From Escherichia phage vB_EcoM_G2494, in the sequence record MK327935.1: a stretch of 64,000 bases of DNA. One strand, written 5' to 3'. Positions 35,535-60,951 of the stretch are shown here, piece by piece; position 1 is the stretch's first letter; every line of letters starts with the position of its first letter. Below the pieces are notes generated by a model that was not told the origin of the DNA, did not search any database, and saw only the letters and a list, made by a program, of their open reading frames with translations. The position numbers and the translations under genes were made by a program.

Positions 35535-35561
35535 GTTGTCCTCTCGTTGTTTTCGATGTGA

Positions 35562-35591
35562 GCATTATACATTAGCTAATCAGGTTGTCAA
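35562..35591 (-). promoter_or_regulatory. sigma70-type early promoter
   Basis: minus-strand TTGACA - 16 nt - TATAAT directly after the nrdD terminator. Confidence 0.5.
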
Positions 35592-35628
35592 CACCCCAAA
35601 ACGAAAAAGCCGACCCTTTCGGATCGGC
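35592..35628 (-). terminator. intrinsic terminator after nrdD
   Basis: GC-rich hairpin followed by TTTTTCGTTTT on minus strand. Confidence 0.55.
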
Positions 35629-35634
35629 TGAAAA

Positions 35635-37497
35635 TTACATGTGCTTAACGCGGTTTACCATCTCGGAGTGTTTCCCGTGGTTAAATGGACGCAGATCAAC
35701 AGATCCAAGATATCCACTAACGCGACGGATAACATTCATCTTTTCCAGATTGTCATTGCCGCAATCAGGACAAACAAAACCAGACTCGGTCGCTCTCATT
35801 TCCTTATTAGATCCGCATACATGACATACATCAGAAGGAGTATTAACACCGAAGTAGTGCAATTTATCCATTGCATAGTCCACTACAGTTTCAAGACCTT
35901 TCAGGTTGTTTTTCATGTCTGGGAACTCAACATAAGAGATCATGCCACCGGACGCCAGCCAGTGATAATCTTTCTCAAAGTCGATTTTCTCAAATGGAGT
36001 GACTTTCCGGTCTACGTCAAGGTGGAATGAGTTGGTGTACCAGTCTTTATCGGTAGCACCCTTAACAATACCAAATTGCTCTCGGTCCAGTCGATTAAAT
36101 CGATAGCAAAGGCTCTCGGCTGGCGTACCGTAAAGACTAAACCCAAGTCCGGTTTCGTCCTTCCATTTTTCAGTATAATGACGCAAGATCTTAAGAATAT
36201 GTTTACCGTATCGCTGCGCATCTTCCGAATCAAACGGATGAACATCAAACAGGACGCTCAATACCTCATGTAAACCAATATATCCAAGAGAGATACTAGC
36301 GCGACCATCTTTCAGAACTTCCAAAATTTCATCGTTTTGATGAATACGGAAAAACGCACCTTCGGTATACAGTACAGGAGCAACATTAGCTTTAGCGCCT
36401 TTTAAAGCGTCTACGCGACTCATGAGCGCATCAAAACAAATAGGCATACGATTAGCTAGCTCTTGTTCGAATAGCTCAATTCTGCGCATTACAGACGCTT
36501 TACCAGCACGACGCGCGGCAATAAGGGCAATACGCGGAAGATTCAGAGTCACAACACCTAAGTTATTACGTCCGTCTAATACTTCTTCGCCTTTCTCATT
36601 ATGCCACACACCCAGGAAGCTACGACAACCCATCGGGCTAACCGGAACACTAGATCCAGTGATACTACGGTTATTCTTCGCAGAGATATAATCAGGGTAA
36701 AGACGCTTACTAGAACATTCCAATGCAAGTTGCTTAATGTCGTAGTTCGGATCTTCCGGTTTAAGGTTTAATCCTTCTTCTAAGAACATCACCAGCTTAG
36801 GAAACACCGGAGTGATACCATCTTTACCTAAACCTTTAGTTCGAACTTTCAGGATCGCTTTCTGAATCAGTTTTTCTTCCCAGCTAGTCCCCATACCAAA
36901 TGTTAAAGTCACAAAAGGTGTTTGACCGTTGGTGGAGAACAAAGTGTTGATTTCATATTCCAACGCTTGATACCCGTCTAGCGTTTCTTTTTCTGTCTTC
37001 TCTTGTGCATAGAGAGTATCCGCTTTGATTCCGTAGGTTTCGGCATCAGCAAGGTGTTTATGATATGTTTTCTCAACATACGGTGCTAACACCTGATCGA
37101 TGTTTGCAATTGTGGTCCCGCCATATTGATGACTTGCCACCTGTGCGATAATTTGAGCGGTTACAGCACATGCAACACCGATCGATTTAGGACTTTCGAT
37201 TTGTGCGCTACCCAATTTAAAACCATTCTCTAACATGTCTTTGAGATTAACAAGACAGCAGTTAGTAAACGGCATAGCGGGTGCATAATCCATATCATGA
37301 TAATGAATGTCACCGTCTACATGCGCTTTATAGATGTGCTCAGGTAACACGGTTTTAGCAATCTGTTTAGACACAGCACCAGCAATCAGATCTCGACGTG
37401 TCGGGAATGTTCGCGCGTCTTTGTTCGCGTTCTCTTTGCTTACTTCGTTTTCTTTACCCGTTGCGATCTCTGTAATGTCTTTGATTAGTTTTTCCAT
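35635..37497 (-). CDS. nrdD: anaerobic ribonucleoside-triphosphate reductase (glycyl radical enzyme)
   Basis: 620 aa; C-terminal glycyl radical motif RVSGYLG and CxxC zinc ribbon; catalytic-core blocks. Confidence 0.92.
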   Translation of the reverse strand: MEKLIKDITEIATGKENEVSKENANKDARTFPTRRDLIAGAVSKQIAKTVLPEHIYKAHVDGDIHYHDMDYAPAMPFTNCCLVNLKDMLENGFKLGSAQIESPKSIGVACAVTAQIIAQVASHQYGGTTIANIDQVLAPYVEKTYHKHLADAETYGIKADTLYAQEKTEKETLDGYQALEYEINTLFSTNGQTPFVTLTFGMGTSWEEKLIQKAILKVRTKGLGKDGITPVFPKLVMFLEEGLNLKPEDPNYDIKQLALECSSKRLYPDYISAKNNRSITGSSVPVSPMGCRSFLGVWHNEKGEEVLDGRNNLGVVTLNLPRIALIAARRAGKASVMRRIELFEQELANRMPICFDALMSRVDALKGAKANVAPVLYTEGAFFRIHQNDEILEVLKDGRASISLGYIGLHEVLSVLFDVHPFDSEDAQRYGKHILKILRHYTEKWKDETGLGFSLYGTPAESLCYRFNRLDREQFGIVKGATDKDWYTNSFHLDVDRKVTPFEKIDFEKDYHWLASGGMISYVEFPDMKNNLKGLETVVDYAMDKLHYFGVNTPSDVCHVCGSNKEMRATESGFVCPDCGNDNLEKMNVIRRVSGYLGSVDLRPFNHGKHSEMVNRVKHM

Positions 37498-37541
37498 TGT
37501 ATCACCTATGAAAAAGCGGGATTTCTCCCGCTCGTTGATAG

Positions 37542-38036
37542 TTATTTTACCAGTTCTGCTAATTCTTTTTCCGCCGCTTCCAGTTCAGCTTTAAGCTGTT
37601 TAATCTCTTGTCGCTTCTTATTAGCGGCTTCCTGCTTACTATTTCGGATAACCTGATCTAGATACAACTCCCAATCCTGAATATTTTTGATAATGTATCC
37701 GTCAACATTAATTGGTCGGAGATTCAGTACAGCTTCCAGTTTAGTCGCAAAAACTTTAATTGCTGGTGTGAAGTATTCATATTCGTTATCTTCAAACCAA
37801 TAACCTAGACTTGCATTATCAATACGAAGACGAAGTTTAAGATCAAGGTCTTTATCGTCGGTGTAAAGATCTTTCACCTGCCCCATCGAGCTAACAACAA
37901 CTTTAAAACGAATTTTATCTACACCGCCAAAAACATCTTCAAGAATATCAGCAATTGAGCTATTAGCGCAAGATTGGTCGCTGAATGCGTCAAGGTTTTC
38001 TTTAGTTACAGTATACCAAACATCTTGTACCCACAT
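37542..38036 (-). CDS. hypothetical protein, C-terminal coiled coil
   Basis: 164 aa; GAGAGGATTATATTATG start context; ends in KQLKAELEAAEKELAELVK helix. Confidence 0.5.
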   Translation of the reverse strand: MWVQDVWYTVTKENLDAFSDQSCANSSIADILEDVFGGVDKIRFKVVVSSMGQVKDLYTDDKDLDLKLRLRIDNASLGYWFEDNEYEYFTPAIKVFATKLEAVLNLRPINVDGYIIKNIQDWELYLDQVIRNSKQEAANKKRQEIKQLKAELEAAEKELAELVK

Positions 38037-38065
38037 AATATAATCCTCTCGTTGTTAAGTGGGAG

Positions 38066-38095
38066 TATTATAGCATACTCCCTTCGCATGTCAAG
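38066..38095 (-). promoter_or_regulatory. sigma70-type early promoter with dyad symmetry (PeSL-like)
   Basis: TTGACA - 16 nt - TATAAT; -10 lies in loop of GGGAGTAT/ATACTCCC inverted repeat. Confidence 0.5.
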
Positions 38096-39269
38096 CACTA
38101 ACTTTTTTCTTTACTGCTTTCACCTTCTGGCGAATTGCTCGAATCTCTTCGATCTCTTTTTCAGTCTCTTTAACAATTTCTTTGCGATTCTGAATATCTG
38201 TATCGAGATTATCATCAAGTTTAGGCAGCATGTCAATCAAGAACTTTTTAAAGTCTTTCAGGTTTCGGATAACAGCACCTTCACCCATTACCGCAACACC
38301 CACACCATCCGGCAGATCACCAAACAGCTTAACCAGTTCAGACAGATGATCATGATCTTCTAGTGCTTCTTCCGGTTCAGATGGCAGTTCAACAAAGTTA
38401 TAACGTTCATCATTGCTGATCAAGTGATACCAGCAAAGCCCGAAAGATTTCGGTGTATATTCTACACCATCAATTTCAACCGCGTCAACACTTCCATAAT
38501 CATCTACTTTAGTTACCTTAAATCCTTGTCCCAGCTTTTGAACAATTTCAACAACATGACTTGATACAGTTTCAGCGGTAAACCAATATGGCAAATTATG
38601 CTGATTTGGCTTGTAGCGTTCACCTACTTTAAATCTCTGACCAGCCGCTTGCATAGAATGAAATTGTTGTTTCGTGATTTCCGCGAAGTATTCAAATTCG
38701 CCACCATCAAACACACAAGCCCATTGATCACAAAAACGATCTGCCTTAACAGTTTCACCTTTCGCGGTGATCGTGGTAGCTGATCCGTGCAATTCTTCTT
38801 CAACTAAAAAGCCATATTCGACAAAATCAACAAGTTTCATAGCTTCTTTGTGATCTGGATCATGCTCTCCCCAGAATCGCTTAAATTCTTGCAAACCTTC
38901 TGGGGTAAACGAATAACATTTACCTTTTTCAAAGTAAGTCGGCATTGCATCCTCTTTCTTGTTCATCGCTTCGTATGCCTCTTTTGAGATGCGTTTAAAG
39001 TATTTACGCTCACTGTGCATAATCATAGTAGCCCAATAATCCACAATATCATTAGCGGAATAAACTACATCTCCAGCTTCAATAGTAATAACATGACCGT
39101 GGTCATCTTTTTCTAATACTTTAAAGCCCTTTTCTACGATTTCAGCAACCCGAATATGACCACGGCGCGAAGCATCGGTCAGAATAATTGAATAGCGAGA
39201 AAAGTCTAGAAACTCATCTTTACCGCCTTCACGGAATGCATAGTAATGACCTTCAAAGAATTTAGCCAT
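38091..39269 (-). CDS. hypothetical protein, paralog family B (three internal repeats)
   Basis: 392 aa; three ~95-aa repeats; ERKYFKRISK motif shared with ORFs 39326 and 39907; charged C-terminal helix. Confidence 0.5.
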   Translation of the reverse strand: MAKFFEGHYYAFREGGKDEFLDFSRYSIILTDASRRGHIRVAEIVEKGFKVLEKDDHGHVITIEAGDVVYSANDIVDYWATMIMHSERKYFKRISKEAYEAMNKKEDAMPTYFEKGKCYSFTPEGLQEFKRFWGEHDPDHKEAMKLVDFVEYGFLVEEELHGSATTITAKGETVKADRFCDQWACVFDGGEFEYFAEITKQQFHSMQAAGQRFKVGERYKPNQHNLPYWFTAETVSSHVVEIVQKLGQGFKVTKVDDYGSVDAVEIDGVEYTPKSFGLCWYHLISNDERYNFVELPSEPEEALEDHDHLSELVKLFGDLPDGVGVAVMGEGAVIRNLKDFKKFLIDMLPKLDDNLDTDIQNRKEIVKETEKEIEEIRAIRQKVKAVKKKVSA

Positions 39270-39299
39270 AATATAATCCTCTCGTTGTTTAGACGGGAG

Positions 39300-39330
39300 T
39301 ATCTTACTACTCCCGTTTCATCATGTCAAG
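39300..39330 (-). promoter_or_regulatory. sigma70-type early promoter with dyad symmetry (PeSL-like)
   Basis: TTGACA - 17 nt - TAAGAT; 9-bp inverted repeat ACGGGAGTA/TACTCCCGT around -10. Confidence 0.45.
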
Positions 39331-39892
39331 CGTTAAATGACTTTTGGATCTCTTTCAGTTCAGCTACTTTATCGGCGCTGAATTTAGCGTAGGTATCATG
39401 TCGAATAATTTCACTTTCAAGAAAGGTTTCCAGCCGAGTTCTATTTTCAATAAGGAACTCTTTCAGGTCTTCCGCGTTCTTGATAAAGATTTTATTGTCG
39501 GTAATGTCATCTTCAATCGCAAAGGAGATAGAGCGAACTTTACCAAACAAGTTAATCAGATCTTCCAGAGATTCTTCTTTCTTAACTGGTTTCATTTCTT
39601 CAAACTGCTTTTTAGTGATACGTTTAAAGTATTTGCGCTCGTTTGCAGCAATCAGAACAGATGCACCTTCATACTCATGAGTTTCTACCAGATACACACG
39701 CCCCATCGCATCAACAGTTAGAACTTTAAAGCCGTTACAAAGCACGTCATACAAGAACTTATTATGTTGCGGACATCGTTTGATAAATTCCTCTGCGGAC
39801 TCAGCATTACGGAAAGTGTAATAACGACCTCGTTCAAAAACAGCATCAGTTGAAGACTTAGCCGGATACAATTTATACGTTTTCTGTACCAT
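39326..39892 (-). CDS. hypothetical protein, paralog family B
   Basis: Trimmed to MVQKTYKLY... with GAGGATTATATTATG context; ERKYFKRITK motif. Confidence 0.5.
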   Translation of the reverse strand: MVQKTYKLYPAKSSTDAVFERGRYYTFRNAESAEEFIKRCPQHNKFLYDVLCNGFKVLTVDAMGRVYLVETHEYEGASVLIAANERKYFKRITKKQFEEMKPVKKEESLEDLINLFGKVRSISFAIEDDITDNKIFIKNAEDLKEFLIENRTRLETFLESEIIRHDTYAKFSADKVAELKEIQKSFNA

Positions 39893-39906
39893 AATATAAT
39901 CCTCTA

Positions 39907-40179
39907 TCATTTCACTAATTGAACAGCACGAAACAGAATGCGGTCACACGGAAGAAGCATAAATTCCCAACGCGGATCAAAGTCTTTAGCGGTATATGTT
40001 TTCCCATCAACCGAGATTTCACTTACATAACCAATAGGTGACACTTTAAGAACAGTAAACCCATTCTTGATGACTTCGTAGGTATCTTTCAATCCTTCGT
40101 AGTCATCCTCTAGGAAGTCTTTACGTGCTTGCTCAGATTTAAAAACATAGGCCACACCAGCTTTAAACATCTTACGCAT
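39907..40179 (-). CDS. hypothetical protein, paralog family B-related
   Basis: Trimmed to MRKMFKAG... with AGGAG SD; the listed longer ORF would overlap its own promoter. Confidence 0.45.
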   Translation of the reverse strand: MRKMFKAGVAYVFKSEQARKDFLEDDYEGLKDTYEVIKNGFTVLKVSPIGYVSEISVDGKTYTAKDFDPRWEFMLLPCDRILFRAVQLVK

Positions 40180-40210
40180 TGTTGATTCTCCTTCTTGATT
40201 AGATGGGAGT

Positions 40211-40239
40211 ATTTTACTACTCCCATTTCTTATTGTCAA
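40211..40239 (-). promoter_or_regulatory. sigma70-type early promoter with dyad symmetry (PeSL-like)
   Basis: TTGACA - 17 nt - TAAAAT; inverted repeat ATGGGAGTA/TACTCCCAT around -10. Confidence 0.45.
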
Positions 40240-40242
40240 CTA

Positions 40243-40716
40243 CTATCTTAATCTTTGTATAAATTGTTTCTTATACTTCTTCGTGATTTCTTCTCGTGTA
40301 TCAGCGTCGCAGTAATCGAAACCTTCTGCGTCCATAATAGCAACCATCTCCGCGCGTGTCAAGCGTGAAAATCGTTTTACTTTATCAACAGCATATTGAG
40401 GATGTAAATGATTGTCGGTGTAGTCTCCTTTGATGTAATTAACATAGTTTGTAGCCCAAACAACGAAATCAGCACCTAAAGCACCAACACCAAACCGTTT
40501 AAAGTCTCCGGTCAACGATCCTTCTAGGCGGTTGCAACACGAATGAAGCAATCCCCTTACGCGGCCTTGCCCTTTCCCATCTAGATCGTGGTCGTGGTCA
40601 AGATGGTTTTTGCTCATATCCTCAAAAAGTGGCAATTGACAAAGGGGGCAAATGCCCCCCTGTTTTTCGAATAGTTCTTGTTTGTACTCTTTAGCACTCT
40701 TAGCAGTCAGTAACAT
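40243..40716 (-). CDS. 49: endonuclease VII (Holliday junction resolvase)
   Basis: Trimmed to MLLTAK...; NHLDHDHDL and VRGLL blocks match T4 gp49. Confidence 0.85.
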   Translation of the reverse strand: MLLTAKSAKEYKQELFEKQGGICPLCQLPLFEDMSKNHLDHDHDLDGKGQGRVRGLLHSCCNRLEGSLTGDFKRFGVGALGADFVVWATNYVNYIKGDYTDNHLHPQYAVDKVKRFSRLTRAEMVAIMDAEGFDYCDADTREEITKKYKKQFIQRLR

Positions 40717-40740
40717 AAATTCACCCTCCAAAGAAGGTAT

Positions 40741-41030: not shown

Positions 41031-41843
41031 TCAATCTACGTTAGTTACATAAACTTCTTGCGTATCAGAAGACTTACCACCTGAACGATCTAGGCAATAG
41101 GTCTTATTCAACAGGACGCAGTTTAAATCATTCCGCTTGATAAAGTCAAGGAGATGATCATTTACCTTTCCCTTATGATGTGTGACATTACTGATACCAA
41201 ACTGAAAACCACGCGCCATAATCGATTCTACCCACTGATAGAATTTAATCTCTTCCTCGTCACTCCAGAACTTATTATATTCCGCAGAAGTGATAAGGTA
41301 CGGCGGGTCCAAATAAACGAAATCACCTGGCAAGATCTCGATCTCGTCATAACGACCAGACGTAAAACTGATTCGACCGTCTTTGTTTTCTTCCTTAAAA
41401 TTCAGGACACGCTCTACCGCGTTTTCGTTAAAAGTCCGTCGGCCAAAATTAGCATTAAATTCTCCCTTCCTGTTATGGCGGTTAATGTTGCTAAAACTGT
41501 GCTGAATCAGAACAAACAGAGATAGCGGATCTGGATTCTCATTATACTTCTTACGGAATGTCATGTAAGCGTCTTTATCATCACGAGACAAACCATTTTC
41601 GGCAATAATACGCTTGATCGTAGAAACCGGATCAGGACACTCGTCAATCGCTTTGTACGCGTCAATTAAGCGGTGATCATAGTCATTAGCCAGCACATCC
41701 CCTTCGACGTACAGAGACACGCTCAAGCCGCCACAGAAGGCATCAACAAAGCGGTTATAGTGCTTAGGGAAATACTTACTAACACCCGGCAATAACTTTT
41801 CCTTATTGCCAGTATAGGGAATTAAACCTAATGCTTTCTTCAT
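41031..41843 (-). CDS. dam: DNA adenine methyltransferase
   Basis: 270 aa; motif I FVDAFCGGLSVSL, motif IV DFVYLDPPYLIT, YNKFWSDEEE block as in T4 Dam. Confidence 0.9.
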   Translation of the reverse strand: MKKALGLIPYTGNKEKLLPGVSKYFPKHYNRFVDAFCGGLSVSLYVEGDVLANDYDHRLIDAYKAIDECPDPVSTIKRIIAENGLSRDDKDAYMTFRKKYNENPDPLSLFVLIQHSFSNINRHNRKGEFNANFGRRTFNENAVERVLNFKEENKDGRISFTSGRYDEIEILPGDFVYLDPPYLITSAEYNKFWSDEEEIKFYQWVESIMARGFQFGISNVTHHKGKVNDHLLDFIKRNDLNCVLLNKTYCLDRSGGKSSDTQEVYVTNVD

Positions 41844-43092: not shown

Positions 43093-43401
43093 TTATTTCA
43101 CGTTAACGCCGTTATCAATCCAGCCGACGCTATTTGGTTTAACAGTTTTACCATAGGATGCATACTTAATCAAGCATGGTTTAACATCATTATCAAATCT
43201 TCCTAAACGTACTCCCAAATCAGGAATATCCATGTATGCGGCTTTATATCCCCATGTACCGTATTCAGAATCAATCTCAACCGGACGGCCTTTAAAAGCA
43301 TACACTACACCGTGACGGTCAACGATAACATAGCGATAGCCAGCCGGAAGATACACAGTTTCGCCGTAAACTTTAACTGGAGTAGCAGAAGAGATAAACA
43401 T
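43093..43401 (-). CDS. hypothetical protein
   Basis: Trimmed to MFISSATPV... with GAGGATTATATTATG context. Confidence 0.45.
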   Translation of the reverse strand: MFISSATPVKVYGETVYLPAGYRYVIVDRHGVVYAFKGRPVEIDSEYGTWGYKAAYMDIPDLGVRLGRFDNDVKPCLIKYASYGKTVKPNSVGWIDNGVNVK

Positions 43402-43435
43402 AATATAATCCTCACATCGTTCATTTGATGCGGTC

Positions 43436-43464
43436 ATTATATGATAACCGCATTTTCATGTCAA
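43436..43464 (-). promoter_or_regulatory. sigma70-type early promoter (PeSL-like)
   Basis: TTGACA - 17 nt - TATAAT; inverted repeat ATGCGGT/ACCGCAT spanning spacer and -10. Confidence 0.5.
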
Positions 43465-43470
43465 CAGTTT

Positions 43471-43809
43471 TTAAAAATCTTCTTCCGGTTTATATCGACC
43501 GTCATCGACTGGTTTTGGACTGAATCCTTTATGCGTGCGCGGCTTCGCTTCCGGTTTACCAGCAATCATCAAACCAAAACATTTCAGCCCCTTATAACAC
43601 ATAACAATATCAACCACGGTCCACGTTATAGGCCATACGATTGCAGCAATACAAAATGCTCCTATATCGACCTCTTTGGTGTCCTTGTCGAATCTGGCGT
43701 ACAAGCAGAATACTAGATACGAGATCATTGCACCAGTAGTCCAGATATAAAGCACATTAACAATATCTTGTGTTGTCACATTATCCTCCTTACATGTCTT
43801 GTAGTGCAT
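43471..43809 (-). CDS. hypothetical membrane protein
   Basis: Hydrophobic segments; start uncertain (listed ORF overlaps upstream gene by ~100 nt). Confidence 0.35.
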   Translation of the reverse strand: MHYKTCKEDNVTTQDIVNVLYIWTTGAMISYLVFCLYARFDKDTKEVDIGAFCIAAIVWPITWTVVDIVMCYKGLKCFGLMIAGKPEAKPRTHKGFSPKPVDDGRYKPEEDF

Positions 43810-44068
43810 AAAAGCATTTTTCTTCATAGTCATAGAAAATGTCAAAGTATGCTTTTTCCACATACTCGCCATTAATCCAAGCGGTAGTAACAATCAGAGT
43901 GGTCCAGTTAGATCCGCTCTCAACGGTAAAGGTTTTAATACCCAGCTTCGCTGCCAAGTCGAACGCAAACCGGACGCAACCACGGCAGGAAGTGATATTG
44001 GAAGTTTTGATTTTAAAGCCACCGCGAGTTTTAGAAATTTCTACTTTAGCGAAAGACAGGTTGCTCAT
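43790..44068 (-). CDS. hypothetical protein
   Basis: Trimmed to MSNLSFAKVE... preceded by conserved leader ...AGGAGAATCAAA-ATG; related to ORF 46449..46670. Confidence 0.5.
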   Translation of the reverse strand: MSNLSFAKVEISKTRGGFKIKTSNITSCRGCVRFAFDLAAKLGIKTFTVESGSNWTTLIVTTAWINGEYVEKAYFDIFYDYEEKCFYALQDM

Positions 44069-44104
44069 TTTGATTCTCCTTAAGAAAGTGTGTTTCGTTT
44101 TGAT

Positions 44105-44140
44105 GTGTGTAGTATAAGGGATCACCGATCCCCTGTCAAC
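44105..44140 (-). promoter_or_regulatory. sigma70-type early promoter with spacer stem-loop (PeSL-like)
   Basis: TTGACA - 17 nt - TATACT; spacer contains GGGGATC/GATCCCC inverted repeat. Confidence 0.45.
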
Positions 44141-44148
44141 AACTTTTT

Positions 44149-44478
44149 TTATGATTTTAGTGAATTAACCACTACATCAAAATGATGTACAGAGCACACC
44201 TTACGAAACACATATTCATCATGTTTCGGAATCGCCCCCAACCGCTTTATTTCGCTCGCCGACACGATAAACCGTTTATCAGGTGCATTTACCTTATATG
44301 CTTCAACAACGCACGGAAAACGCGTTTTAGAGAGTTCGGGATAGTTTTCTGACTCCATCAGGACAATGAATACCCTATTACATTGATTGTAGAATCCGGT
44401 TTTTGATTTCATCAAGTTTTCTTCTCTGTGAAATTCGTGCAATCTTCCTTTCATGATTTCGTTGGTTCTTGTCTTCAC
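44149..44478 (-). CDS. hypothetical protein
   Basis: 109-aa ORF; overlaps upstream ORF by ~100 nt, true start probably internal. Confidence 0.4.
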   Translation of the reverse strand: MKTRTNEIMKGRLHEFHREENLMKSKTGFYNQCNRVFIVLMESENYPELSKTRFPCVVEAYKVNAPDKRFIVSASEIKRLGAIPKHDEYVFRKVCSVHHFDVVVNSLKS

Positions 44479-45218: not shown

Positions 45219-45649
45219 TTTGTGATCTCCTTATACTCAACACACCATAAGCGGGTAGCCCATGATAAACGCTCATAACGCTGACAGAAATCGGACCATA
45301 GATATTGTGTACCGTTCGGCATAGTTGAAATATGCGTTTTCTCTCCAACTTTCACGAAAGAAGTATTCGATTTTGTGATCTCGACCGGAGTATATCCGAA
45401 AGCGGGTTCCAAGCCAACATCTGAACTAAATGCTAATTTAACAGAATTTGTTTTTCTGACCGCTGTCCGGTTTCCTTCTGGGTATAGCACAGCAGGTTTA
45501 GCGCCTAAGCGGATAAACTCAGTGTTTTTAATAAACAGAATATCATGATAACCGTCATATTCCGACACTTCCATAGTAACAGGAAAATCGACATGTTTTA
45601 AACCTGGTGGATCTCGCATATCATGAAATGTAGCCATCAACTTTTTCAT
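45215..45649 (-). CDS. hypothetical protein, paralog pair C
   Basis: 144 aa; C-terminal block ITKSNTSFVKVGEKTHISTM...QYLWSDFC...LSWA shared with next ORF. Confidence 0.45.
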   Translation of the reverse strand: MKKLMATFHDMRDPPGLKHVDFPVTMEVSEYDGYHDILFIKNTEFIRLGAKPAVLYPEGNRTAVRKTNSVKLAFSSDVGLEPAFGYTPVEITKSNTSFVKVGEKTHISTMPNGTQYLWSDFCQRYERLSWATRLWCVEYKEITK

Positions 45650-45659
45650 TCTATATTCC

Positions 45660-45905
45660 TCACTCTTCTGTAATTACTTCATATTCAATTTTCCATACAT
45701 CAATCGCCCAGCTTAAAAGCTCATACGATTTACAGAAAGATGACCAAATATACTGTTTTCCGTGCATCGTTGTTATGTGTGTATGCTCACCAACTTCAAC
45801 GAAAGACATATTTGACTTTGTGATAACTATAGGAATGCGACCGAAAGGTGGCGGTATTACTGATTCGTTGGTCTTCATTCTATATTCCTCACTCTTCTGT
45901 TTCAT
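45660..45905 (-). CDS. hypothetical protein, paralog pair C
   Basis: 81 aa; ITKSNMSFVEVGEHTHITTM...QYIWSSFC...LSWA. Confidence 0.45.
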   Translation of the reverse strand: MKQKSEEYRMKTNESVIPPPFGRIPIVITKSNMSFVEVGEHTHITTMHGKQYIWSSFCKSYELLSWAIDVWKIEYEVITEE

Positions 45906-46096: not shown

Positions 46097-46387
46097 TCAA
46101 ATACTGGTTTTGCGAAGATGGTCATTACATGCTTTTAATGCATCAGTCGAGGTGTCATAGCGAGTATTATCATAGCACCAATAACCATCTGTCAACTGAT
46201 AAATTAATCCATCCTTTTTAGCGTCGATGAAAGACAATTCTTTGAAAGTTTCTACTTTCTTTGCTGATACTCCACGGTCACGGCGTTTATAGAGTTTAGC
46301 TAAAACGCGTTCAGCTTGTTCCTCTTTATCGCCAGACAGATCCCAGATGACGTTTCTGATATGCTTGATTAATTGTTCAGTGGTCAT
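46097..46387 (-). CDS. hypothetical protein
   Basis: 96-aa ORF. Confidence 0.45.
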   Translation of the reverse strand: MTTEQLIKHIRNVIWDLSGDKEEQAERVLAKLYKRRDRGVSAKKVETFKELSFIDAKKDGLIYQLTDGYWCYDNTRYDTSTDALKACNDHLRKTSI

Positions 46388-46414
46388 ATTTGATTCTCCT
46401 TAGTTGGTATGGTT

Positions 46415-46446
46415 ATCATTATACGGGGATTTCTCACCGTGTCAAC
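46415..46446 (-). promoter_or_regulatory. sigma70-type early promoter
   Basis: TTGACA - 16 nt - TATAAT upstream of ORF 46097..46387. Confidence 0.5.
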
Positions 46447-46448
46447 AA

Positions 46449-46670
46449 TTAAATGATCTCTGCTTCACCGTTAAGGAAGAAGGACCATGTTTTGTTAGGA
46501 TAACGAAGCGCCCATGATTCAGCAGTTTTAACACCAGCTTCGAACAATTGACGGCTGGTTACTTTAGCCATACCATCTTCGATGGCAACGTTTTCAATAA
46601 TCATCGGGTACTTAGCGCCACGCATGAAACCGAAGCCAGCGGAAGATTTGATGATTTTAACAGTTGCCAT
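46449..46670 (-). CDS. hypothetical protein
   Basis: Trimmed to MATVKIIKSS... preceded by conserved leader ...AGGAGAATCAAAA-ATG. Confidence 0.5.
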   Translation of the reverse strand: MATVKIIKSSAGFGFMRGAKYPMIIENVAIEDGMAKVTSRQLFEAGVKTAESWALRYPNKTWSFFLNGEAEII

Positions 46671-46706
46671 TTTTGATTCTCCTAGAAAGTGTCGTGTTTC
46701 GATGGG

Positions 46707-46739
46707 TGTATTATGCAATAACACCGGATAGCTGTCAAC
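46707..46739 (-). promoter_or_regulatory. sigma70-type early promoter with conserved leader
   Basis: TTGACA - 17 nt - CATAAT followed by leader ACACCCATCGAAACACGACAC. Confidence 0.5.
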
Positions 46740-46756
46740 ACTTTCTAAGAAAAATT

Positions 46757-47041
46757 TTAAATTAATCGAATATAACCAAGAATTTCAGCGCCTTTAGCCA
46801 GTCCTAAAACTTCCCATTCAAGGTCGCCGTAGTCATAATTTGCAACCATCAACTGACCATTTTTCATGCAGCAATCATGAGAGAAAATTTGCCCCGCATA
46901 AACTACGATAGTAATAAACTTTCCTGATTCTGGCGGTGTGGAAGACAAAGCGACCATATGACCATTCAGCTTAGTAACCAGTGATGGAACAATAAAATTC
47001 GGGCTTACCTTAATACCGTTAAATTCGTTTGTGTCTTTCAT
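46757..47041 (-). CDS. hypothetical protein
   Basis: 94-aa ORF. Confidence 0.45.
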   Translation of the reverse strand: MKDTNEFNGIKVSPNFIVPSLVTKLNGHMVALSSTPPESGKFITIVVYAGQIFSHDCCMKNGQLMVANYDYGDLEWEVLGLAKGAEILGYIRLI

Positions 47042-47723: not shown

Positions 47724-47922
47724 TCTTCACGGTCTCCATAATTGTTTTGTAAGCCAGCTTAAGATGATCACCGAAAAACTTTGCAGTGTTACCCTTCGGA
47801 TCACGGAGCATGGTTTCTACGATCTCATCGGCAGTAACAATTTCTCCTTTCTTTGCTGCATGTTCTACCATATACTTCAAAGTTTCTTCGGAAGCAAGTG
47901 CTGCGGCTACTGGATTAATCAT
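47713..47922 (-). CDS. hypothetical protein
   Basis: 69-aa ORF. Confidence 0.4.
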   Translation of the reverse strand: MINPVAAALASEETLKYMVEHAAKKGEIVTADEIVETMLRDPKGNTAKFFGDHLKLAYKTIMETVKNAK

Positions 47923-47950
47923 TTTGGTTCTCCTTTGTTGTCGATGTGTG

Positions 47951-47981
47951 CATTATGCTATACCATATTCCGGTTGTCAAC
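47951..47981 (-). promoter_or_regulatory. sigma70-type early promoter
   Basis: TTGACA - 17 nt - CATAAT immediately downstream of terminator hairpin. Confidence 0.5.
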
Positions 47982-47985
47982 ACCT

Positions 47986-48020
47986 AAAAACGAAAAAGCC
48001 ACCCTTTCGGATGGCTTTTT
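47986..48020. terminator. intrinsic terminator (hairpin flanked by A-run and T-run)
   Basis: GCCACC...GGATGGC hairpin with T-run on both strands; ends the ~260 nt ORF-free 3' region after ORF 48251..48649. Confidence 0.5.
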
Positions 48021-48250
48021 GATTATATTTTATTCACGTCCATTTGTATAGTAGTGTTTGAATCGACCTTTGCTAAACTCGTTAAACATAGTAACCAATT
48101 CACCATCCCTTTCCAATGATAAACCTTCCTCGTCTTAGACGGGTCTTCCGATTAGGTAGTAATTGAACACGCGAAAGTATGAGGAAGCCAAATAGTTGTG
48201 TTAATGCTAGTATTCTTTTACTTCTGGTATGTATCCCACAGTGACTAACA

Positions 48251-56982: not shown

Positions 56983-57003
56983 AATATAATCCTCACATTA
57001 AAT

Positions 57004-57204
57004 CTAAAATTTGTTAACGACGAATTGCATAATTAGACTAATCACAAACATTGCAAACCAAGTATAAATGCAACAGATAAAAGCTACATACAATTCAATC
57101 TGGTCAGAGAATACACCGGGTAAAAGCATTAGCAAAATAACAACAGTAAAGACGCTAGCGATACCCGCAACAAAACCAATATCATTTTTACTAATCGTCA
57201 TCAA
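57004..57204 (-). CDS. small membrane protein
   Basis: 66 aa, two TM helices. Confidence 0.4.
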   Translation of the reverse strand: MMTISKNDIGFVAGIASVFTVVILLMLLPGVFSDQIELYVAFICCIYTWFAMFVISLIMQFVVNKF

Positions 57205-57410
57205 GTCACCGTTTTGTAAAGAAACACAATAAAATCCAAGACAAGAAAGACAGTGTAAATGATCATCGTCAAGACAGTAAACACTGTCAAATTTTCATCG
57301 TTAGTTAATTCATAGTCGCCCATCCATACAATCACAAGATATAGCATTGAAAGAATGGAAGCACCTACGAAGTTAAAAAACATATTCTTGAGCGTCATAT
57401 TAACAACCAT
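57201..57410 (-). CDS. small membrane protein
   Basis: 69 aa, two TM helices. Confidence 0.4.
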   Translation of the reverse strand: MVVNMTLKNMFFNFVGASILSMLYLVIVWMGDYELTNDENLTVFTVLTMIIYTVFLVLDFIVFLYKTVT

Positions 57411-57582
57411 CGCGGCTTAAGTCAACAGCAATTGCATACAGCATAATGAATATGCTAGCAGATCCGAGAATCAATACACCCTCACATTTTGAAACTCGCT
57501 CATCAAAATGTAACATTATCCATCCGAGGATGTTAAAGGCGCAGACCGCGCCTATGTTCGCTAACCAATTAATCTTTTTCAT
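57400..57582 (-). CDS. small membrane protein
   Basis: 60 aa, two TM helices. Confidence 0.4.
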   Translation of the reverse strand: MKKINWLANIGAVCAFNILGWIMLHFDERVSKCEGVLILGSASIFIMLYAIAVDLSRDGC

Positions 57583-57590
57583 AATATACC

Positions 57591-57917
57591 TTAGAAAGAA
57601 ACAGTTTTCAAGAAATCCAGATTTTCAGTACCGAAAACAGAAAAGTAGTGTTTTCCTTTTTCGGTTTTAGAGAAAGCGATTGTCTTCTCTACATGGTGAC
57701 GGAAGCCAGACAGACGATCACCCAGGTCAAGGCGGCAAGCGTAAGTAGTGCCGTTTTCGAAAGTAACCTCGATTTGAGTTTTGTCATATTCGCTTTCATA
57801 GGCTTTTGCTGCCGCGTCCTGTGCTTTACGCTCGAAGTCTTCGAAGTGGAATACTTCGTTTGCTTTAGCGAATACAGAAGATTCAGAGAAGATAACTTTA
57901 ACAGATACTGGTTTCAT
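57591..57917 (-). CDS. hypothetical protein
   Basis: 108 aa; preceded by conserved leader ...AGGAGTATCAAA-ATG. Confidence 0.5.
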   Translation of the reverse strand: MKPVSVKVIFSESSVFAKANEVFHFEDFERKAQDAAAKAYESEYDKTQIEVTFENGTTYACRLDLGDRLSGFRHHVEKTIAFSKTEKGKHYFSVFGTENLDFLKTVSF

Positions 57918-57958
57918 TTTGATACTCCTTAGTAGTTCGTGTTTCGTTTCGATGGGTG

Positions 57959-57989
57959 TATTATGCTATACACCCTATCGCGTGTCAAC
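57959..57989 (-). promoter_or_regulatory. sigma70-type early promoter with conserved leader
   Basis: TTGACA - 17 nt - CATAAT then leader ACACCCATCGAAACGAAACAC. Confidence 0.5.
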
Positions 57990-57996
57990 AACTTTT

Positions 57997-58185
57997 TTAG
58001 TCTTTTTTCAAAATTTTTAAGGCAGTTTCTACAGCACCTTTCCAACCTTCCCACATAATGGACATAGTAAGGAAGTTAAAGCACCCGCAGGAATCAACCT
58101 TTTTAGAGATAAACCATTCAACAAATCCTTCGCTCATACCATGCTCTTTAGCGGATTCGCGTAATTGTTCAATTTGGTCTTCCAT
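57997..58185 (-). CDS. hypothetical protein
   Basis: 62-aa ORF. Confidence 0.4.
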   Translation of the reverse strand: MEDQIEQLRESAKEHGMSEGFVEWFISKKVDSCGCFNFLTMSIMWEGWKGAVETALKILKKD

Positions 58186-58207
58186 AGTATCACCTCAACA
58201 CTTAACG

Positions 58208-58402
58208 TTATTCAAACTCAAACGGTCTATTCAACCTATTGTAAAAGTACATATAACAAGCAAAATTATGTTTTGGCTGTACCGTATCAGATAGACACGC
58301 TTTTACAGCCTCGCGGTCCGATGGGTCTACACCCTCAGCTTTAAGTAATGCTAAAATCTGGTTATAGCGTACTCTTAGTTGTACTAATGGTTTATCCCCC
58401 AT
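58208..58402 (-). CDS. hypothetical protein
   Basis: 64-aa ORF. Confidence 0.4.
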   Translation of the reverse strand: MGDKPLVQLRVRYNQILALLKAEGVDPSDREAVKACLSDTVQPKHNFACYMYFYNRLNRPFEFE

Positions 58403-58411
58403 ATTACCCCC

Positions 58412-58633
58412 TTATAGTTGATCAGCGATGTAAGCGTGACAAGCGCGGAGTTTCATTAATGCACTACCTTTCACTTCGCCTACGATGTTCATAACTTCTA
58501 AGCGGTCGGATGGATTCATCTTAGAGCACCAGATCTGGTTAGCCAATTCCAGTTTACTCATATTTGGTTCCATCTCAAACAGTTCACGCTCAAAGTCGAT
58601 AATTTCTTTTGCTGCGTCTTTAAAGTTAATCAT
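58412..58633 (-). CDS. hypothetical protein
   Basis: 73-aa ORF. Confidence 0.4.
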   Translation of the reverse strand: MINFKDAAKEIIDFERELFEMEPNMSKLELANQIWCSKMNPSDRLEVMNIVGEVKGSALMKLRACHAYIADQL

Positions 58634-58654
58634 TTTGATTCTCCCGTTTCGTTG

Positions 58655-58691
58655 ATGTTTGTATTGTAGGGGAGTTATCCTCCCCTGTCAA
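58655..58691 (-). promoter_or_regulatory. sigma70-type early promoter with spacer stem-loop (PeSL-like)
   Basis: TTGACA - 17 nt - TACAAT; spacer holds GGGGAG/CTCCCC inverted repeat. Confidence 0.45.
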
Positions 58692-58699
58692 CACTTTTA

Positions 58700-58885
58700 T
58701 CAGAAATATGCAATATAGTTTGCCAGTCCTACAGAGTCATCATTCGGCATTGCTTTTACTGCCAGTTCAAACCCTGCTTCAACTTTCTGTTTAGCGGATT
58801 CTTCGTTATAACCCCAGATTACCAGAATAGCTACTACGTTTTCTTTGCTTACTGCTTTCAGTGCTTTAGTGATGCGACGTGCCAT
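58700..58885 (-). CDS. hypothetical protein
   Basis: 61 aa; conserved leader ...ACGGAGAATCAAATT-ATG. Confidence 0.4.
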   Translation of the reverse strand: MARRITKALKAVSKENVVAILVIWGYNEESAKQKVEAGFELAVKAMPNDDSVGLANYIAYF

Positions 58886-58930
58886 AATTTGATTCTCCGT
58901 TTAAGAAAGTGTGTTTCGTTTCGATGGGTG

Positions 58931-58961
58931 TATTATGCTATAGGCCGGATCTGGTGTCAAC
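58931..58961 (-). promoter_or_regulatory. sigma70-type early promoter with conserved leader
   Basis: TTGACA - 17 nt - CATAAT then ACACCCATCGAAACGAAACAC. Confidence 0.5.
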
Positions 58962-59162
58962 AACTTTTTTAAAAAATTTTAGGCAATAAAAAAGCCACTC
59001 CGAAGAGTGGCTTATAGGGAAGGTAGCGAATCTTCCTTGTCTCCAACCTGCTAGCGGCCTAGCAAGTGAATGCTTTAGCGTACCGGATCGCCCACATACG
59101 CTGTAATAAATGCGGCTAGGTGACGTCCAAATCATTCTAACCGCGCTGTCTTTAGTTCACTA

Positions 59163-59381
59163 TTATTTATATCGCTTTCTCTCGCGACGTTTTTGATCTT
59201 CTTCCTTGATAGAGTTAAATGCATCAAAAAGACACATGAAACTAATAATAAACATAACCGTATTTTCTATGATATCCCACGGCTTCGCATCAGTACAGAT
59301 CCCCCAAACGGTAAGAAATGCAAATAGTGCAGAAGAGATCACAAGCATGATACTTGCTAAGATATAAAAAGTCATTTTCAT
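59163..59381 (-). CDS. small membrane protein
   Basis: 72 aa, two TM helices, basic C-terminus. Confidence 0.4.
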   Translation of the reverse strand: MKMTFYILASIMLVISSALFAFLTVWGICTDAKPWDIIENTVMFIISFMCLFDAFNSIKEEDQKRRERKRYK

Positions 59382-59572
59382 GGTTTTACCTCAATTCTTC
59401 GATATTCATCACACATCCACGCAGTAAGCAAGAATCCCAACACATAAGCAACAAAATACGTTAATGCTTCTTCTGGTTCGGTGCTATGCGCCATCATCAG
59501 ACCAGCGAGAAAGGTCTTAACAATTACATTTAAAATAATTAGCCACGCAAATAATTTCATCGTTTGCCCCAT
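59378..59572 (-). CDS. small membrane protein
   Basis: 64 aa, two TM helices. Confidence 0.4.
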   Translation of the reverse strand: MGQTMKLFAWLIILNVIVKTFLAGLMMAHSTEPEEALTYFVAYVLGFLLTAWMCDEYRRIEVKP

Positions 59573-59796
59573 TTCGGTCGAGTCTTTTCAAACTTATACA
59601 TTCCGTAACAATCTCGAATCATCCACGTAACAAGAGCACCAGTCAACACAGACAATACACAGAAGAAGTAAAACGGTCCGGTTGCATTATCAACATGAGC
59701 AAGCCAGGTAAAGAAAACACATGCTAAGAATGTGAAGAACATCATAAAACACAAGAAAGCAAAATATTTTATGCTACTCATAGCGCCACCATACAA
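59557..59796 (-). CDS. small membrane protein
   Basis: 79 aa, two TM helices. Confidence 0.4.
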   Translation of the reverse strand: MYGGAMSSIKYFAFLCFMMFFTFLACVFFTWLAHVDNATGPFYFFCVLSVLTGALVTWMIRDCYGMYKFEKTRPKWGKR

Positions 59797-59884
59797 CAGA
59801 TCATAAGAAAACCCAACGCAATAAGAATTGCATCAAATTTAGTGAACTCCGGTCCACCTATCAACATCATTCGTTCTATTTCGT

Positions 59885-60127
59885 TCATAGCGTACAAAGC
59901 CATTTAAAAGCACCACATAAAGCGAGCAGAATACTAGGTATAAACGAGATCAAAACAAGGTTGCAAAAATCATCTAAGGTAACACCGGAATAGCTACCTA
60001 CTGTAACAACACCGATCATCAGACACAGAAAGAAAACAAATGCAATCAGAAACAAAGTATTACTAAACAGTTTAGTGATCATTAGACACCCCACGACGAT
60101 CAATTTCAAAAACTTTTTTATCATCAA
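59885..60127 (-). CDS. small membrane protein
   Basis: 80 aa, two TM helices. Confidence 0.4.
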   Translation of the reverse strand: MMIKKFLKLIVVGCLMITKLFSNTLFLIAFVFFLCLMIGVVTVGSYSGVTLDDFCNLVLISFIPSILLALCGAFKWLCTL

Positions 60128-60275
60128 CGAAGCATGTCACAACTGCCTCGTTGACTTCCGCAAATTGTTGTGTTACCCACTTAAGGTCAGAGCGAAACAA
60201 TGTTCTATTAATAACAAATGTTTTACCGCTCTTATCCTTACCCATAAATTTTGCTTTAACCATATCAAATTCCAT
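60072..60275 (-). CDS. hypothetical protein
   Basis: 67-aa ORF. Confidence 0.4.
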   Translation of the reverse strand: MEFDMVKAKFMGKDKSGKTFVINRTLFRSDLKWVTQQFAEVNEAVVTCFVDDKKVFEIDRRGVSNDH

Positions 60276-60293
60276 ATTATCACCTTATTTGCT

Positions 60294-60443
60294 AATCGCT
60301 AAACCCAATCCGAAGAGAGCACCCGATGCTACAGTATACCCGAAAGTTTCAAAGGCAGTAAAGATATCTAAGCCACCAGCTAACAGAGTTGCAGTAAACA
60401 GAGTACCAGCTACGAACATAAAAGTTTTACCGATGAATTTCAT
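60294..60443 (-). CDS. small membrane protein (unlisted ORF)
   Basis: ~50-aa hydrophobic ORF (MKFIGKTFMFVAGTLF...) behind conserved leader AGGAGAATCAAA-ATG; below table cutoff; coordinates approximate. Confidence 0.35.
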
Positions 60444-60469
60444 TTTGATTCTCCTTTCGTTTGTTTGTG

Positions 60470-60503
60470 GGGGTATCTTACTACCCCCGTTTCATGTTGT
60501 CAA
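60470..60503 (-). promoter_or_regulatory. sigma70-type early promoter with dyad symmetry (PeSL-like)
   Basis: TTGACA - 17 nt - TAAGAT; inverted repeat GGGGGTA/TACCCCC around -10. Confidence 0.45.
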
Positions 60504-60509
60504 CTATTT

Positions 60510-60884
60510 TTAAGAATATTTTACTTCGTCTACAATGTCTTTCATGACATTGATTTCCATTCCGGTCAGAACACGTTGGAACATGTGCTGCACATACGCT
60601 TTCAGGTATTCATTTGATGGCTTGCTATCGAAAGTCTTTTTAGTGTAGTAGTCATCACCGAAAGCTACTGTAATTACATTTTCGTCGTCGTTCCAAGCGA
60701 TATAAGCAAATTTGCCGTTATCCCAGAAGCGAGCACTAATTGCTACTTTTGTTGAATCGAATCCTACTTCGCTGTGAGATTCAAGAACTACTTGCGTACC
60801 AGTTTCTTTATGAATGTAGTAGCGGGATACTAAGTCAAAGTTACGGGTGTAGTGACATTCGAATTTATCTTTAAACATCATCAT
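60510..60884 (-). CDS. hypothetical protein
   Basis: Trimmed to MMMFKDKFE... behind conserved leader ...AGGAGAATCAAA-ATG. Confidence 0.45.
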   Translation of the reverse strand: MMMFKDKFECHYTRNFDLVSRYYIHKETGTQVVLESHSEVGFDSTKVAISARFWDNGKFAYIAWNDDENVITVAFGDDYYTKKTFDSKPSNEYLKAYVQHMFQRVLTGMEINVMKDIVDEVKYS

Positions 60885-60920
60885 TTTGATTCTCCTAAGT
60901 GTGTTTCGTTTCGATATGTG

Positions 60921-60951
60921 CATTATGCTATAGTCGTTTATGGTTGTCAAC
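60921..60951 (-). promoter_or_regulatory. sigma70-type early promoter with conserved leader
   Basis: TTGACA - 17 nt - CATAAT then leader CACATATCGAAACGAAACAC. Confidence 0.5.

Follow-up and report, generated by a model that had tools for sequence, protein, structure and literature searches.

Introduction

Promoter-early stem-loops (PeSLs) were first defined in the bacteriophages RB49 and Phi1, each of which carries 51-52 of them (Arbiol, Comeau, Kutateladze, Adamia, Krisch 2010, Genome Biol Evol 2:140; PMC2839356). A PeSL combines a sigma70-consensus promoter and the A/T-rich region upstream of it with a stem-loop, often of the form polyG...polyC, that is found between the -35 box and the -10 box, over either one, upstream of them or just downstream. 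The unit is limited by the stop codon of the upstream gene on one side and by a Shine-Dalgarno sequence and start codon on the other. Experiments on a few RB49 and Phi1 PeSLs demonstrated promoter activity, terminator activity and PeSL mini-circles (Arbiol 2010, PMC2839356). In this work, we analyzed a 64,000-nucleotide stretch of Escherichia phage vB_EcoM_G2494 (sequence record MK327935.1; in the following, the window), in which an initial annotation had noticed repeated promoter and stem-loop units similar to PeSLs. These units turn out to be the PeSL cassettes that have been published before for RB49-like T4-type coliphages, i.e., a rediscovery and no new feature. Very probably, they are composite intergenic units of 60-130 bp in which an early promoter is combined with a hairpin that acts on upstream transcription.

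The promoter part of these elements had also been described. For RB49, 51 early promoters were predicted genome-wide (Nolan et al. 2006, Virol J 3:30, Additional file 3). Their consensus has G at -36, an A-rich stretch between -40 and -44, T or C at -12 and C from -3 to -1, and 5'-end mapping of early transcripts is in agreement with it (Nolan 2006, citing Desplats et al. 2002). The sites are the same as those analyzed here. They were regarded there solely as promoters, and a separate TransTerm prediction of terminators included some of the embedded hairpins.

Composite promoter and stem-loop elements also occur in hyperplastic regions of T4/PST and KVP40/nt-1, near variable open reading frames (ORFs) (Comeau, Arbiol, Krisch 2014; PMC4122927). 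They differ from the cassettes of the window in their promoters, which read TTTACW or TTGYVH instead of TTGACA, and their stems follow the forms AGNA-loop-TCNT or A3-4G3-loop-C3T3-4; the stem-loops of PST are not inside the promoter but immediately upstream of it (PMC4122927). These elements are analogues of the window cassettes, not homologues. Lambdoid phage morons and the linker sequences in Botstein's theory of modular evolution, both discussed in Arbiol 2010 (PMC2839356), likewise comprise small genes with their own promoter and terminator, or conserved flanks as possible exchange points. However, morons have no conserved flanking repeat and usually run against local transcription, whereas the units of the window are co-oriented and their flanks form a repeated family.

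Results

Early promoter cassettes on the minus strand

We scanned positions 35510-61001 for TTGACA-N16-18-TATAAT, with 200 dinucleotide-preserving shuffles as the null. On the minus strand, 17 sites matched the consensus at 11 or more of 12 positions, compared with 0.51 +/- 0.70 (maximum 4) in the shuffles, and the same scan gave no site at this threshold on the plus strand. With at least 10 of 12 matches there were 33 sites versus 6.4 in the shuffles, and a loose scan at 9 or more of 12 yielded 90 versus 56 expected. In the whole window, TTGACA is present in 54 minus-strand and 8 plus-strand copies, where a hand estimate from base composition gives about 20 per strand; this strand skew suggests that antisense promoters are avoided.

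Complete intergenic cassettes, consisting of an A/T-rich upstream region, -35, -10, Shine-Dalgarno sequence and start codon, number 16 in this range (Table 1, where they are named by the position of the first T of the -35). The count of at least 17 near-consensus sites in the initial annotation holds at the level of 11 of 12 matches, but it exceeds the number of complete cassettes, and about nine promoter-like hits are intragenic. In all 16 cassettes, Shine-Dalgarno sequence and ATG follow 20-45 nucleotides (nt) past the -10. The -35 is an exact TTGACA in 15 and TTGACT in one, the spacer measures 16-17 nt, and the -10 matches 4-6 of the 6 consensus bases. Here the three forms that had been named at first, TATAAT, CATAAT and TAAGAT, do occur, but so do TAAAAT, TATACT, TAATAT, TACAAT and TATTAT. 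Between -25 and -5 relative to the -35, A+T content rises to 75%, compared with 60% in the window, and A alone to 43%, compared with 31%. The pattern common to the cassettes can be written as aaaaaGTTG-TTGACA-N17-(C/T)ATAAT-AC(N)CCC-ATCGAAAC...AAGGAGAATCAAAATG. The genes downstream mostly encode hypothetical proteins of 50-200 amino acids, as judged from the RB49 annotation.

The limits 35560-60951 that had been given for these units agree with the first -10 (35569-35564) and the last -35 (60950-60945) but proved too narrow, since seven more cassettes (2833, 3202, 8912, 9481, 20207, 27013 and 34440) lie outside. Cassettes are nevertheless dense among the small genes, with 16 in the 25-kb small-ORF region versus 7 in the other 39 kb of the window. 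The intragenic sites (38236, 40362, 43845, 46195, 51109, 53535, 54563, 55807 and 57290) match the consensus at 10-11 of 12 positions and are followed by neither Shine-Dalgarno sequence nor start codon.

The entire region is read from the minus strand, through nrdD, dam, rI, tk, regB, the endolysin gene, dmd and then 57B, and between these named genes lie dozens of ORFs of 50-200 codons each.

Orthology and conservation in Krischvirus

The window belongs to Krischvirus, the RB49-like T4-type coliphages, and is about 96-97% identical to RB49, kvi, FL20, JSE and Phi1. For a 6-kb and a 25-kb piece of the range, about 60 Krischvirus records matched at 95-97% identity, including GEC-3S and ECD7, and none of them was identical. 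Orthology of the cassettes was assigned by the coordinates of Nolan 2006 together with sequence, rather than by the PeSL list of Arbiol 2010. Of the 51 promoters listed by Nolan 2006, 17 fall into the RB49 interval that matches the range, and 15 of the 16 in-range cassettes as well as cassette 34440 align with RB49 early promoters. The orthologue mappings lie 13-15 nt from the listed 5' end in 15 of 16 cases; for cassette 46445, which sits at the gene 38 junction, the alignment is ambiguous. RB49, Phi1 and JSE share the cassette sequences at 97-100% identity. In the GEC-3S record, the depositors marked these sites as promoters and terminators, and in that of G2248, the embedded hairpins carry the depositors' annotation as terminators.

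The match to PeSLs that the initial annotation had proposed extends to every sequence-level feature of their definition. Cassettes of the window and PeSLs of RB49 and Phi1 come from the same genus at about 97% identity and share the TTGACA-N17-TATAAT core, the A/T-rich upstream region, G(n)-loop-C(n) stems, stem positions, bounding stop codons, Shine-Dalgarno sequences and start codons, and the density among small ORFs. Nothing essential differs; a stem mismatch in cassette 46445 and the lack of the gene 38 module at this site are alleles of the isolate. As a discovery, the cassettes carry little weight: their prediction as early promoters dates from 2006, and in 2010 they received the name PeSLs and were tested, in phages that are about 97% identical.

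What the present comparison adds is evidence, from a multiple alignment of the region from 12 Krischvirus genomes, that hexamers and hairpin stems are under purifying selection. Only 1 of 96 columns is variable in the -35 hexamers and 1 of 96 in the -10 hexamers, compared with 13.4% of columns in the whole region. The stem arms vary at 12 of 228 columns (5%), the loops at 10 of 70, the spacer outside hairpins at 38 of 153 (25%) and the 5' untranslated region (first 25 nt of the leader) at 16 of 397. Variability is significantly lower in stem arms than in the non-hairpin spacer (P = 5e-8) or in the whole region (P = 1e-4). The initial annotation had made its reading depend on inverted repeats being conserved in relatives, and this is what we observed, with every hairpin kept in 10-12 of the 12 genomes and arms less variable than loops and spacer. 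The nine intragenic sites might be internal promoters; their hexamers vary at only 4 of 108 columns, but the sites are part of coding sequence, and at three of them some relatives have lost the -35. A scan of positions 34000-62000 against Rfam at gathering thresholds gave no family match.

The 5' leaders recur between cassettes (ATCGAAACGAAACACACTTTCTTAAGGAGAATCAAAATG), e.g., at 44104-44066, 57953-57915 and 58925-58883, with 4% variable columns. Most cassette Shine-Dalgarno sequences contain GGAG, which is the target motif of RegB, and the regB gene lies in the same region; control of early messages by RegB is possible. In the spacer hairpin 34435-34418, the 4-nt loop GCGA is inverted to TCGC in kvi and OZ035808 with the stem unchanged, which is the signature of hairpin-mediated loop inversion.

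Arrangement of the hairpins

GC-rich hairpins of 7-12 bp are present in 13 of the 16 in-range cassettes. As the initial annotation had noted, they lie around the -10 or in the spacer, and several sites follow a terminator hairpin. Seven cassettes (38094, 39329, 40239, 43464, 52625, 57988 and 60503) have a stem of 7-10 bp over the -10; outside the range, 2833 belongs to the same type and 3202 is related to it. Here, the 6-nt loop contains the first 4-5 bases of the -10, the 5' arm reads GGGNGTA(T), and the 3' arm is formed by (A)T and ACNCCC. In 44139 and 58691, a stem of 7-8 bp occupies the spacer directly past the -35 in the form GGGG(A)..-loop-..(T)CCCC; outside the range, 34440 and 27013 are arranged likewise. 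The remaining four (35591, 47980, 58960 and 60950) feature an upstream hairpin and T-run terminator that ends 13-32 nt before the -35. Most stems start with G3-5 and finish with C3-5. Among all 23 cassettes of the window, 16 have a GC-rich stem of at least 7 bp, compared with 4.6% of random 104-nt windows (binomial P = 7e-17), and the named hairpins are present in the minimum free energy fold of 18 of 20 folded cassette regions.

The cassettes follow two layouts. In the compact layout, 0-9 nt separate the upstream stop codon from the -35, or a TGA lies inside TTGACA, and the hairpin is embedded in the spacer or over the -10. In the extended layout, the distance from stop codon to -35 is at least 42 nt, and a hairpin and U-run terminator occupies the gap. 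This gap measures 42-44 nt at 35591, 47980 and 60950, and at 58960 the hairpin is found 32-53 nt upstream of the -35. Hairpins over the -10 lie 5-36 nt past the stop codon of the upstream gene. With gaps of 42-44 nt in extended and 0-9 nt in embedded cases, the layout supports a function of the hairpins at 3' ends. In cassettes 38094 and 39329, the stop codon falls within T-TGA-CA, so that coding sequence overlaps the promoter of the next unit.

The consensus C at -3 to -1 in RB49 places the putative transcription start at the A after CCC, so the hairpins over the -10 would end exactly at -1. All cassette hairpins, including those of 9481 and 3202, which together with their T-runs straddle the -10 and the putative start, have at least their 5' arm upstream of this putative start. 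From this it follows that only RNA arriving from the upstream unit should be able to fold the hairpin, to which the cassette's own transcript would be immune.

A canonical intrinsic terminator, i.e., a GC-rich hairpin and U-run, is found at the four upstream hairpins and at 3202 and 9481 only. The spacer hairpins continue into a U/A-rich -10, e.g., UUAUACU. In cassette 9481, the Shine-Dalgarno sequence GGAGGC forms the 3' arm of the hairpin; it would be sequestered in read-through RNA, which would be terminated, but accessible in RNA initiated at the promoter. The spacer of cassette 27013 is identical to that of the kvi allele of cassette 46445.

Table 1. PeSL cassettes of the window, with their parts and RB49 counterparts (Pe, early promoter of Nolan 2006; the last rows list cassettes outside the small-ORF range)
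Cassette	Span	Strand	-35	-10	Hairpin	ATG	RB49	Remarks
35591	35532..35635	-	TTGACA 35591-35586	TATAAT 35569-35564	terminator 35629-35608, then T-run; palindrome TTAGCTAA in 16-nt spacer	35534	Pe:34495	upstream of ORF055 homologue; Shine-Dalgarno GAGG
38094	38034..38094	-	38094-38089	TATAAT 38072-38067	8 bp, GGGAGTAT/ATACTCCC, 38082-38061, over -10	38036	Pe:36999	compact; -35 includes TGA stop codon of frd.2
39329	39267..39329	-	39329-39324	TAAGAT 39306-39301	9 bp, 39316-39293, over -10	39269	Pe:38234	compact; upstream of frd.2; -35 includes upstream TGA; TransTerm terminator at RB49 38186-38205
40239	40177..40245	-	40239-40234	TAAAAT 40216-40211	9 bp, 40226-40203, over -10	40179	Pe:39144	compact; depositors' annotation: promoter in GEC-3S, terminator in G2248
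43464	43399..43473	-	43464-43459	TATAAT 43441-43436	10 bp, 43453-43428, one G.U pair, over -10	43401	Pe:42369	compact
44139	44066..44151	-	44139-44134	TATACT 44116-44111	spacer, GGGGATC-GGT-GATCCC, 44134-44116	44068	Pe:43045	long, conserved 5' untranslated region
46445	46385..46451	-	46445-46440	TATAAT 46423-46418	spacer, CGG(T)GA-GAAA-TCCCCG, 46439-46424, one mismatch; perfect in kvi, G2248	46387		junction without gene 38 module
46738	46668..46759	-	46738-46733	CATAAT 46715-46710	not intact; 3' half ATACACCC retained, 5' arm degenerate; fold z = +1.05	46670	Pe:46502	
47980	47920..48023	-	47980-47975	CATAAT 47957-47952	12-bp terminator 48020-47993, then T-run	47922	Pe:47746	extended
51779	51714..51811	-	TTGACT 51779-51774	TATTAT 51756-51751	AT-rich 7-bp inverted repeat 51811-51791; no intact GC-rich stem	51716	absent from list	weaker; upstream of vs.1; promoter in GEC-3S annotation
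52625	52563..52628	-	52625-52620	TAATAT 52602-52597	7 bp, GGGGGTA/TACCCCC, 52610-52591, over -10	52565	Pe:52389	compact; upstream TAG stop codon abuts -35
57988	57915..57999	-	57988-57983	CATAAT 57965-57960	8 bp, GGGTGTAT/ATACACCC, 57975-57954, over -10	57917	Pe:57746	compact
58691	58631..58702	-	58691-58686	TACAAT 58668-58663	spacer, GGGGAG-GATAA-CTCCCC, 58686-58668	58633	Pe:58430	
58960	58883..59013	-	58960-58955	CATAAT 58937-58932	9-bp terminator 59013-58992, then T-run	58885	Pe:58699	extended
60503	60441..60512	-	60503-60498	TAAGAT 60480-60475	7 bp, GGGGGTA/TACCCCC, 60488-60469, over -10	60443	Pe:60244	compact
60950	60882..60997	-	60950-60945	CATAAT 60927-60922	9-bp terminator 60988-60967, then T-run	60884	Pe:60694	extended
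34440	34367..34452	-	TTGACG 34440-34435	TATACT	spacer, GGGGATC-GCGA-GATCCCC, 34435-34418	34369	Pe:33349	just outside range
2833 and 3202	2771..3208	-			2833: 8 bp over -10; 3202: 13 bp straddling -10, then T-run (3202-3138)			outside range
8912 and 9481	8852..9491	-			8912: none; 9481: hairpin and T-run from right past -10, taking in Shine-Dalgarno (9481-9417)		Pe:8927, Pe:9496	
27013	26957..27016	-	TTGACG		spacer, GCGGGGA-GAAA-TCCCCGT			

Discussion

Several of our observations weigh against the reading of these units as PeSL cassettes in which a promoter, a hairpin acting on upstream transcription and a role in gene exchange come together. A hairpin is not obligatory, since none is intact in three of the 16 in-range cassettes (46738, 51779 and, in this phage, 46445). 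Past the seven in-range hairpins over the -10 comes AUCGAAAC-like sequence, with the 3' arms continuing into ATCGAAAC, ACTTAACA, GTCTAAAC or ACAAACAA; because no U-run follows, they are not canonical intrinsic terminators. The aligned genomes are only 3-4% diverged, so covariation among orthologues has little power. The other points concern gene content. Apart from homing-endonuclease insertions, one of six insertions or deletions (indels) coincides with a cassette, where the chance of at least one doing so is 0.40. A large deletion of 2.1 kb beside cassette 47980 has its endpoints inside the lost gene, and three small-ORF indels (44953; 45645-45873; 57196-57392) are not bounded by promoter cassettes.

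These gene-content data agree with the alternative that the units are ordinary early promoters and terminators, which resemble each other by selection and shared ancestry and have no special role in shuffling. Selection would then act through strong sigma70 promoters, efficient leaders and compact spacing, recombination would use any short repeat, and homing endonucleases would do much of the remodelling. Such a view disputes only the evolutionary role of the elements and not their identity; we take it seriously, although we judge it somewhat improbable. Between 34 and 62 kb, the 12 genomes show ten structural differences, of which four are homing-endonuclease insertions, in line with this alternative. 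The insertions are located in nrdD at 36627 (JSE), at nrdC/dam at 41036 (GEC-3S, pEJ01), after nrdC.11 at 53797-53818 (JSE, Whisky, pEJ01) and before the endolysin gene at 54990-55017 (five genomes); the window has none of the four homing-endonuclease genes at these sites. The three small-ORF indels, too, agree with exchange at any short repeat, as they are bounded by direct repeats of 6-27 nt in ribosome-binding-site and start-codon regions or in the first 20 nt of paralogous genes. Of the non-homing indels away from cassettes, one lies at a distance of 80-160 nt with internal endpoints and four at 535-814 nt, with a 60-bp difference 535 nt from any cassette. Furthermore, the single-ORF modules between the cassette pairs 58960/58691, 46738/46445 and 60950/60503 are missing in none of the 12 genomes. 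The window has an extra 81-codon ORF (45660..45905) that is otherwise found only in Ec_Makalu_001.

The 2.1-kb difference beside 47980 was considered as a cassette-mediated event and rejected, since internal gene fragments are kept and the endpoints thus fall inside the gene. Noncoding positions 48021-48250, downstream of rI.-1, are the scar of a 715-codon gene that is intact in G2248 and SSG23. Short internal fragments of this gene remain in the window, and Phi1 has ORF84.1 at the same spot.

In contrast, the gene 38 difference does coincide with a cassette and thereby speaks against ordinary promoters without a role in exchange. A module of about 870 bp with the long-tail-fibre adhesin gene 38 and flanking terminators is present in nine of the 12 genomes at 46388-46448, whereas the window, kvi and G2248 lack it precisely at cassette 46445; a search of the 64-kb window for gp38 found no homologue. 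We rejected a simple deletion between two RB49 cassettes, as the promoter core differs in the window and kvi from that of RB49. This core, from the spacer and -10 to the start, is unlike the one downstream of gene 38 in RB49, which points to a replacement of the promoter core as well, with the right junction in the shared leader. RB49-type gp38 shares 75-90% identity with its counterpart in T2-like phages of other genera.

Published data also stand against this alternative: of 14 differential ORFans, 10 are next to a PeSL, and PeSL-bounded mini-circles were detected via inverse PCR and filtration (Arbiol 2010, PMC2839356). In the window, exact identity between cassettes spans 15-32 nt, with similarity over about 100 bp, and up to 32 nt is within reach of T4-type recombination. 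A blastn search with cassette 57988 found 9-13 paralogous places per Krischvirus genome and only weak hits outside the genus. A role of the cassettes in shuffling, which the initial annotation had taken over from the literature, is weakly visible here. The gene 38 module is in its favor, and the comparison of gene content otherwise lends it little independent support. The region neither confirms nor contradicts the published proposal, which rests on the comparison of RB49 with Phi1 and on the mini-circle experiments (Arbiol 2010, PMC2839356).

A different alternative concerns the hairpins, which might act as DNA, either as operators at which a dimeric phage or host protein turns off or adjusts early promoters or as cruciforms for a recombination enzyme, e.g., endonuclease VII. 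This would accommodate palindromes that overlap the spacer or -10 and embedded hairpins without U-runs, and GGGG...CCCC has been speculated to be the target of a DNA-binding protein (Arbiol 2010, PMC2839356). The loop inversion at cassette 34440 is also suggestive of a DNA palindrome that occasionally folds or gives rise to a template switch. Nevertheless, we consider an action as DNA very unlikely, as the arms both differ and covary (GGGAGTA, GGGGGTA, GGGTGTAT, GCGGTTAT, GGGGATAT, GGGGAG, GGGGATC), and as their varied position over the -10, in the spacer or upstream misfits a single operator. Among the eight paralogous hairpins over the -10, there are five different arm sequences, with double compensatory changes at three of seven pairs. 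These paralogue pairs were tabulated directly, because two registers, in which the 5' arm is shifted by 2 nt, defy one structure string on a MAFFT alignment. Among orthologous alleles, pairing is kept through G.U at 43464, 40239, 35591 and 47980; at 43464, three further alleles retain at least 9 of 10 pairs, two of them via switches between G.U and A-U. Single pairs are broken in 38094 of Makalu_001 and in 46445 of the window, as are some outer pairs. With the 60950 hairpin excluded, whose apparent mismatches are alignment artefacts, the non-Watson-Crick stem cells read on the sense strand comprise nine G.U and one A.C. Neither recognition of duplex DNA nor cruciforms would lead one to expect this asymmetry, which points to a structure on the sense RNA. 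Moreover, compact and extended layouts interchange, with an embedded hairpin replacing a canonical terminator.

Chance matches in an A/T-rich genome, finally, might explain the many weak hits of the loose scan and some high-scoring intragenic hits, but we rejected them as practically inconceivable in view of the 17 sites versus 0.5 in shuffles with none on the plus strand, the intergenic positions each with Shine-Dalgarno sequence and ATG, the hexamers nearly invariant across 12 genomes and the orthology to published promoters.

For PeSL cassettes whose hairpins work at the RNA level, the following sequence of events can be proposed. The host sigma70 RNA polymerase would recognize the near-consensus -35 and -10, aided by the A-rich, UP-like region, and start at the A that follows CCC, 7 nt past the -10. 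The transcript would cover one to several small early genes, which are reached via the conserved A-rich leader with its GGAG-type Shine-Dalgarno sequence. The hairpin would form only in RNA arriving from the upstream unit, where it may end, attenuate or stabilize the 3' end of the upstream transcript, and the cassette's own transcript would escape. In addition, the T4-type recombination system could use the repeated cassettes as homology patches and occasionally swap or delete the modules between them.

The embedded hairpins over the -10 probably serve as terminators, attenuators or 3'-end stabilizers; terminator activity has been published for one other PeSL stem-loop, 211/210 (Arbiol 2010, PMC2839356). 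One may further speculate that the hairpins of the form G(n)-loop-C(n) over the -10 are no intrinsic terminators but sense-RNA devices of a separate kind, by which the upstream message has its 3' end marked or protected, an idea that we regard as doubtful. Such a device could work via pausing, via processing linked to Rho or RNase or as a block to 3' exonucleases. A sense-RNA device at 3' ends would fit, but is not proven by, the G.U bias, the covariation and the trade-off of compact against extended layouts.

For annotation, this work provides exact coordinates of 23 early transcription units and distinguishes true cassettes from intragenic TTGACA. The popular reading of PeSLs as sites of gene shuffling should be tempered for this region, in which most gene-content differences are homing-endonuclease insertions or other exchanges at short repeats and not PeSL-PeSL events. 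The point that the cassettes leave, modest in scope, is the role of the embedded hairpins without U-runs. If these are indeed a sense-RNA device, they would represent a nested 3'-end and promoter design, in which the same DNA serves as the core of the next promoter and independent early units would be packed without intergenic space.

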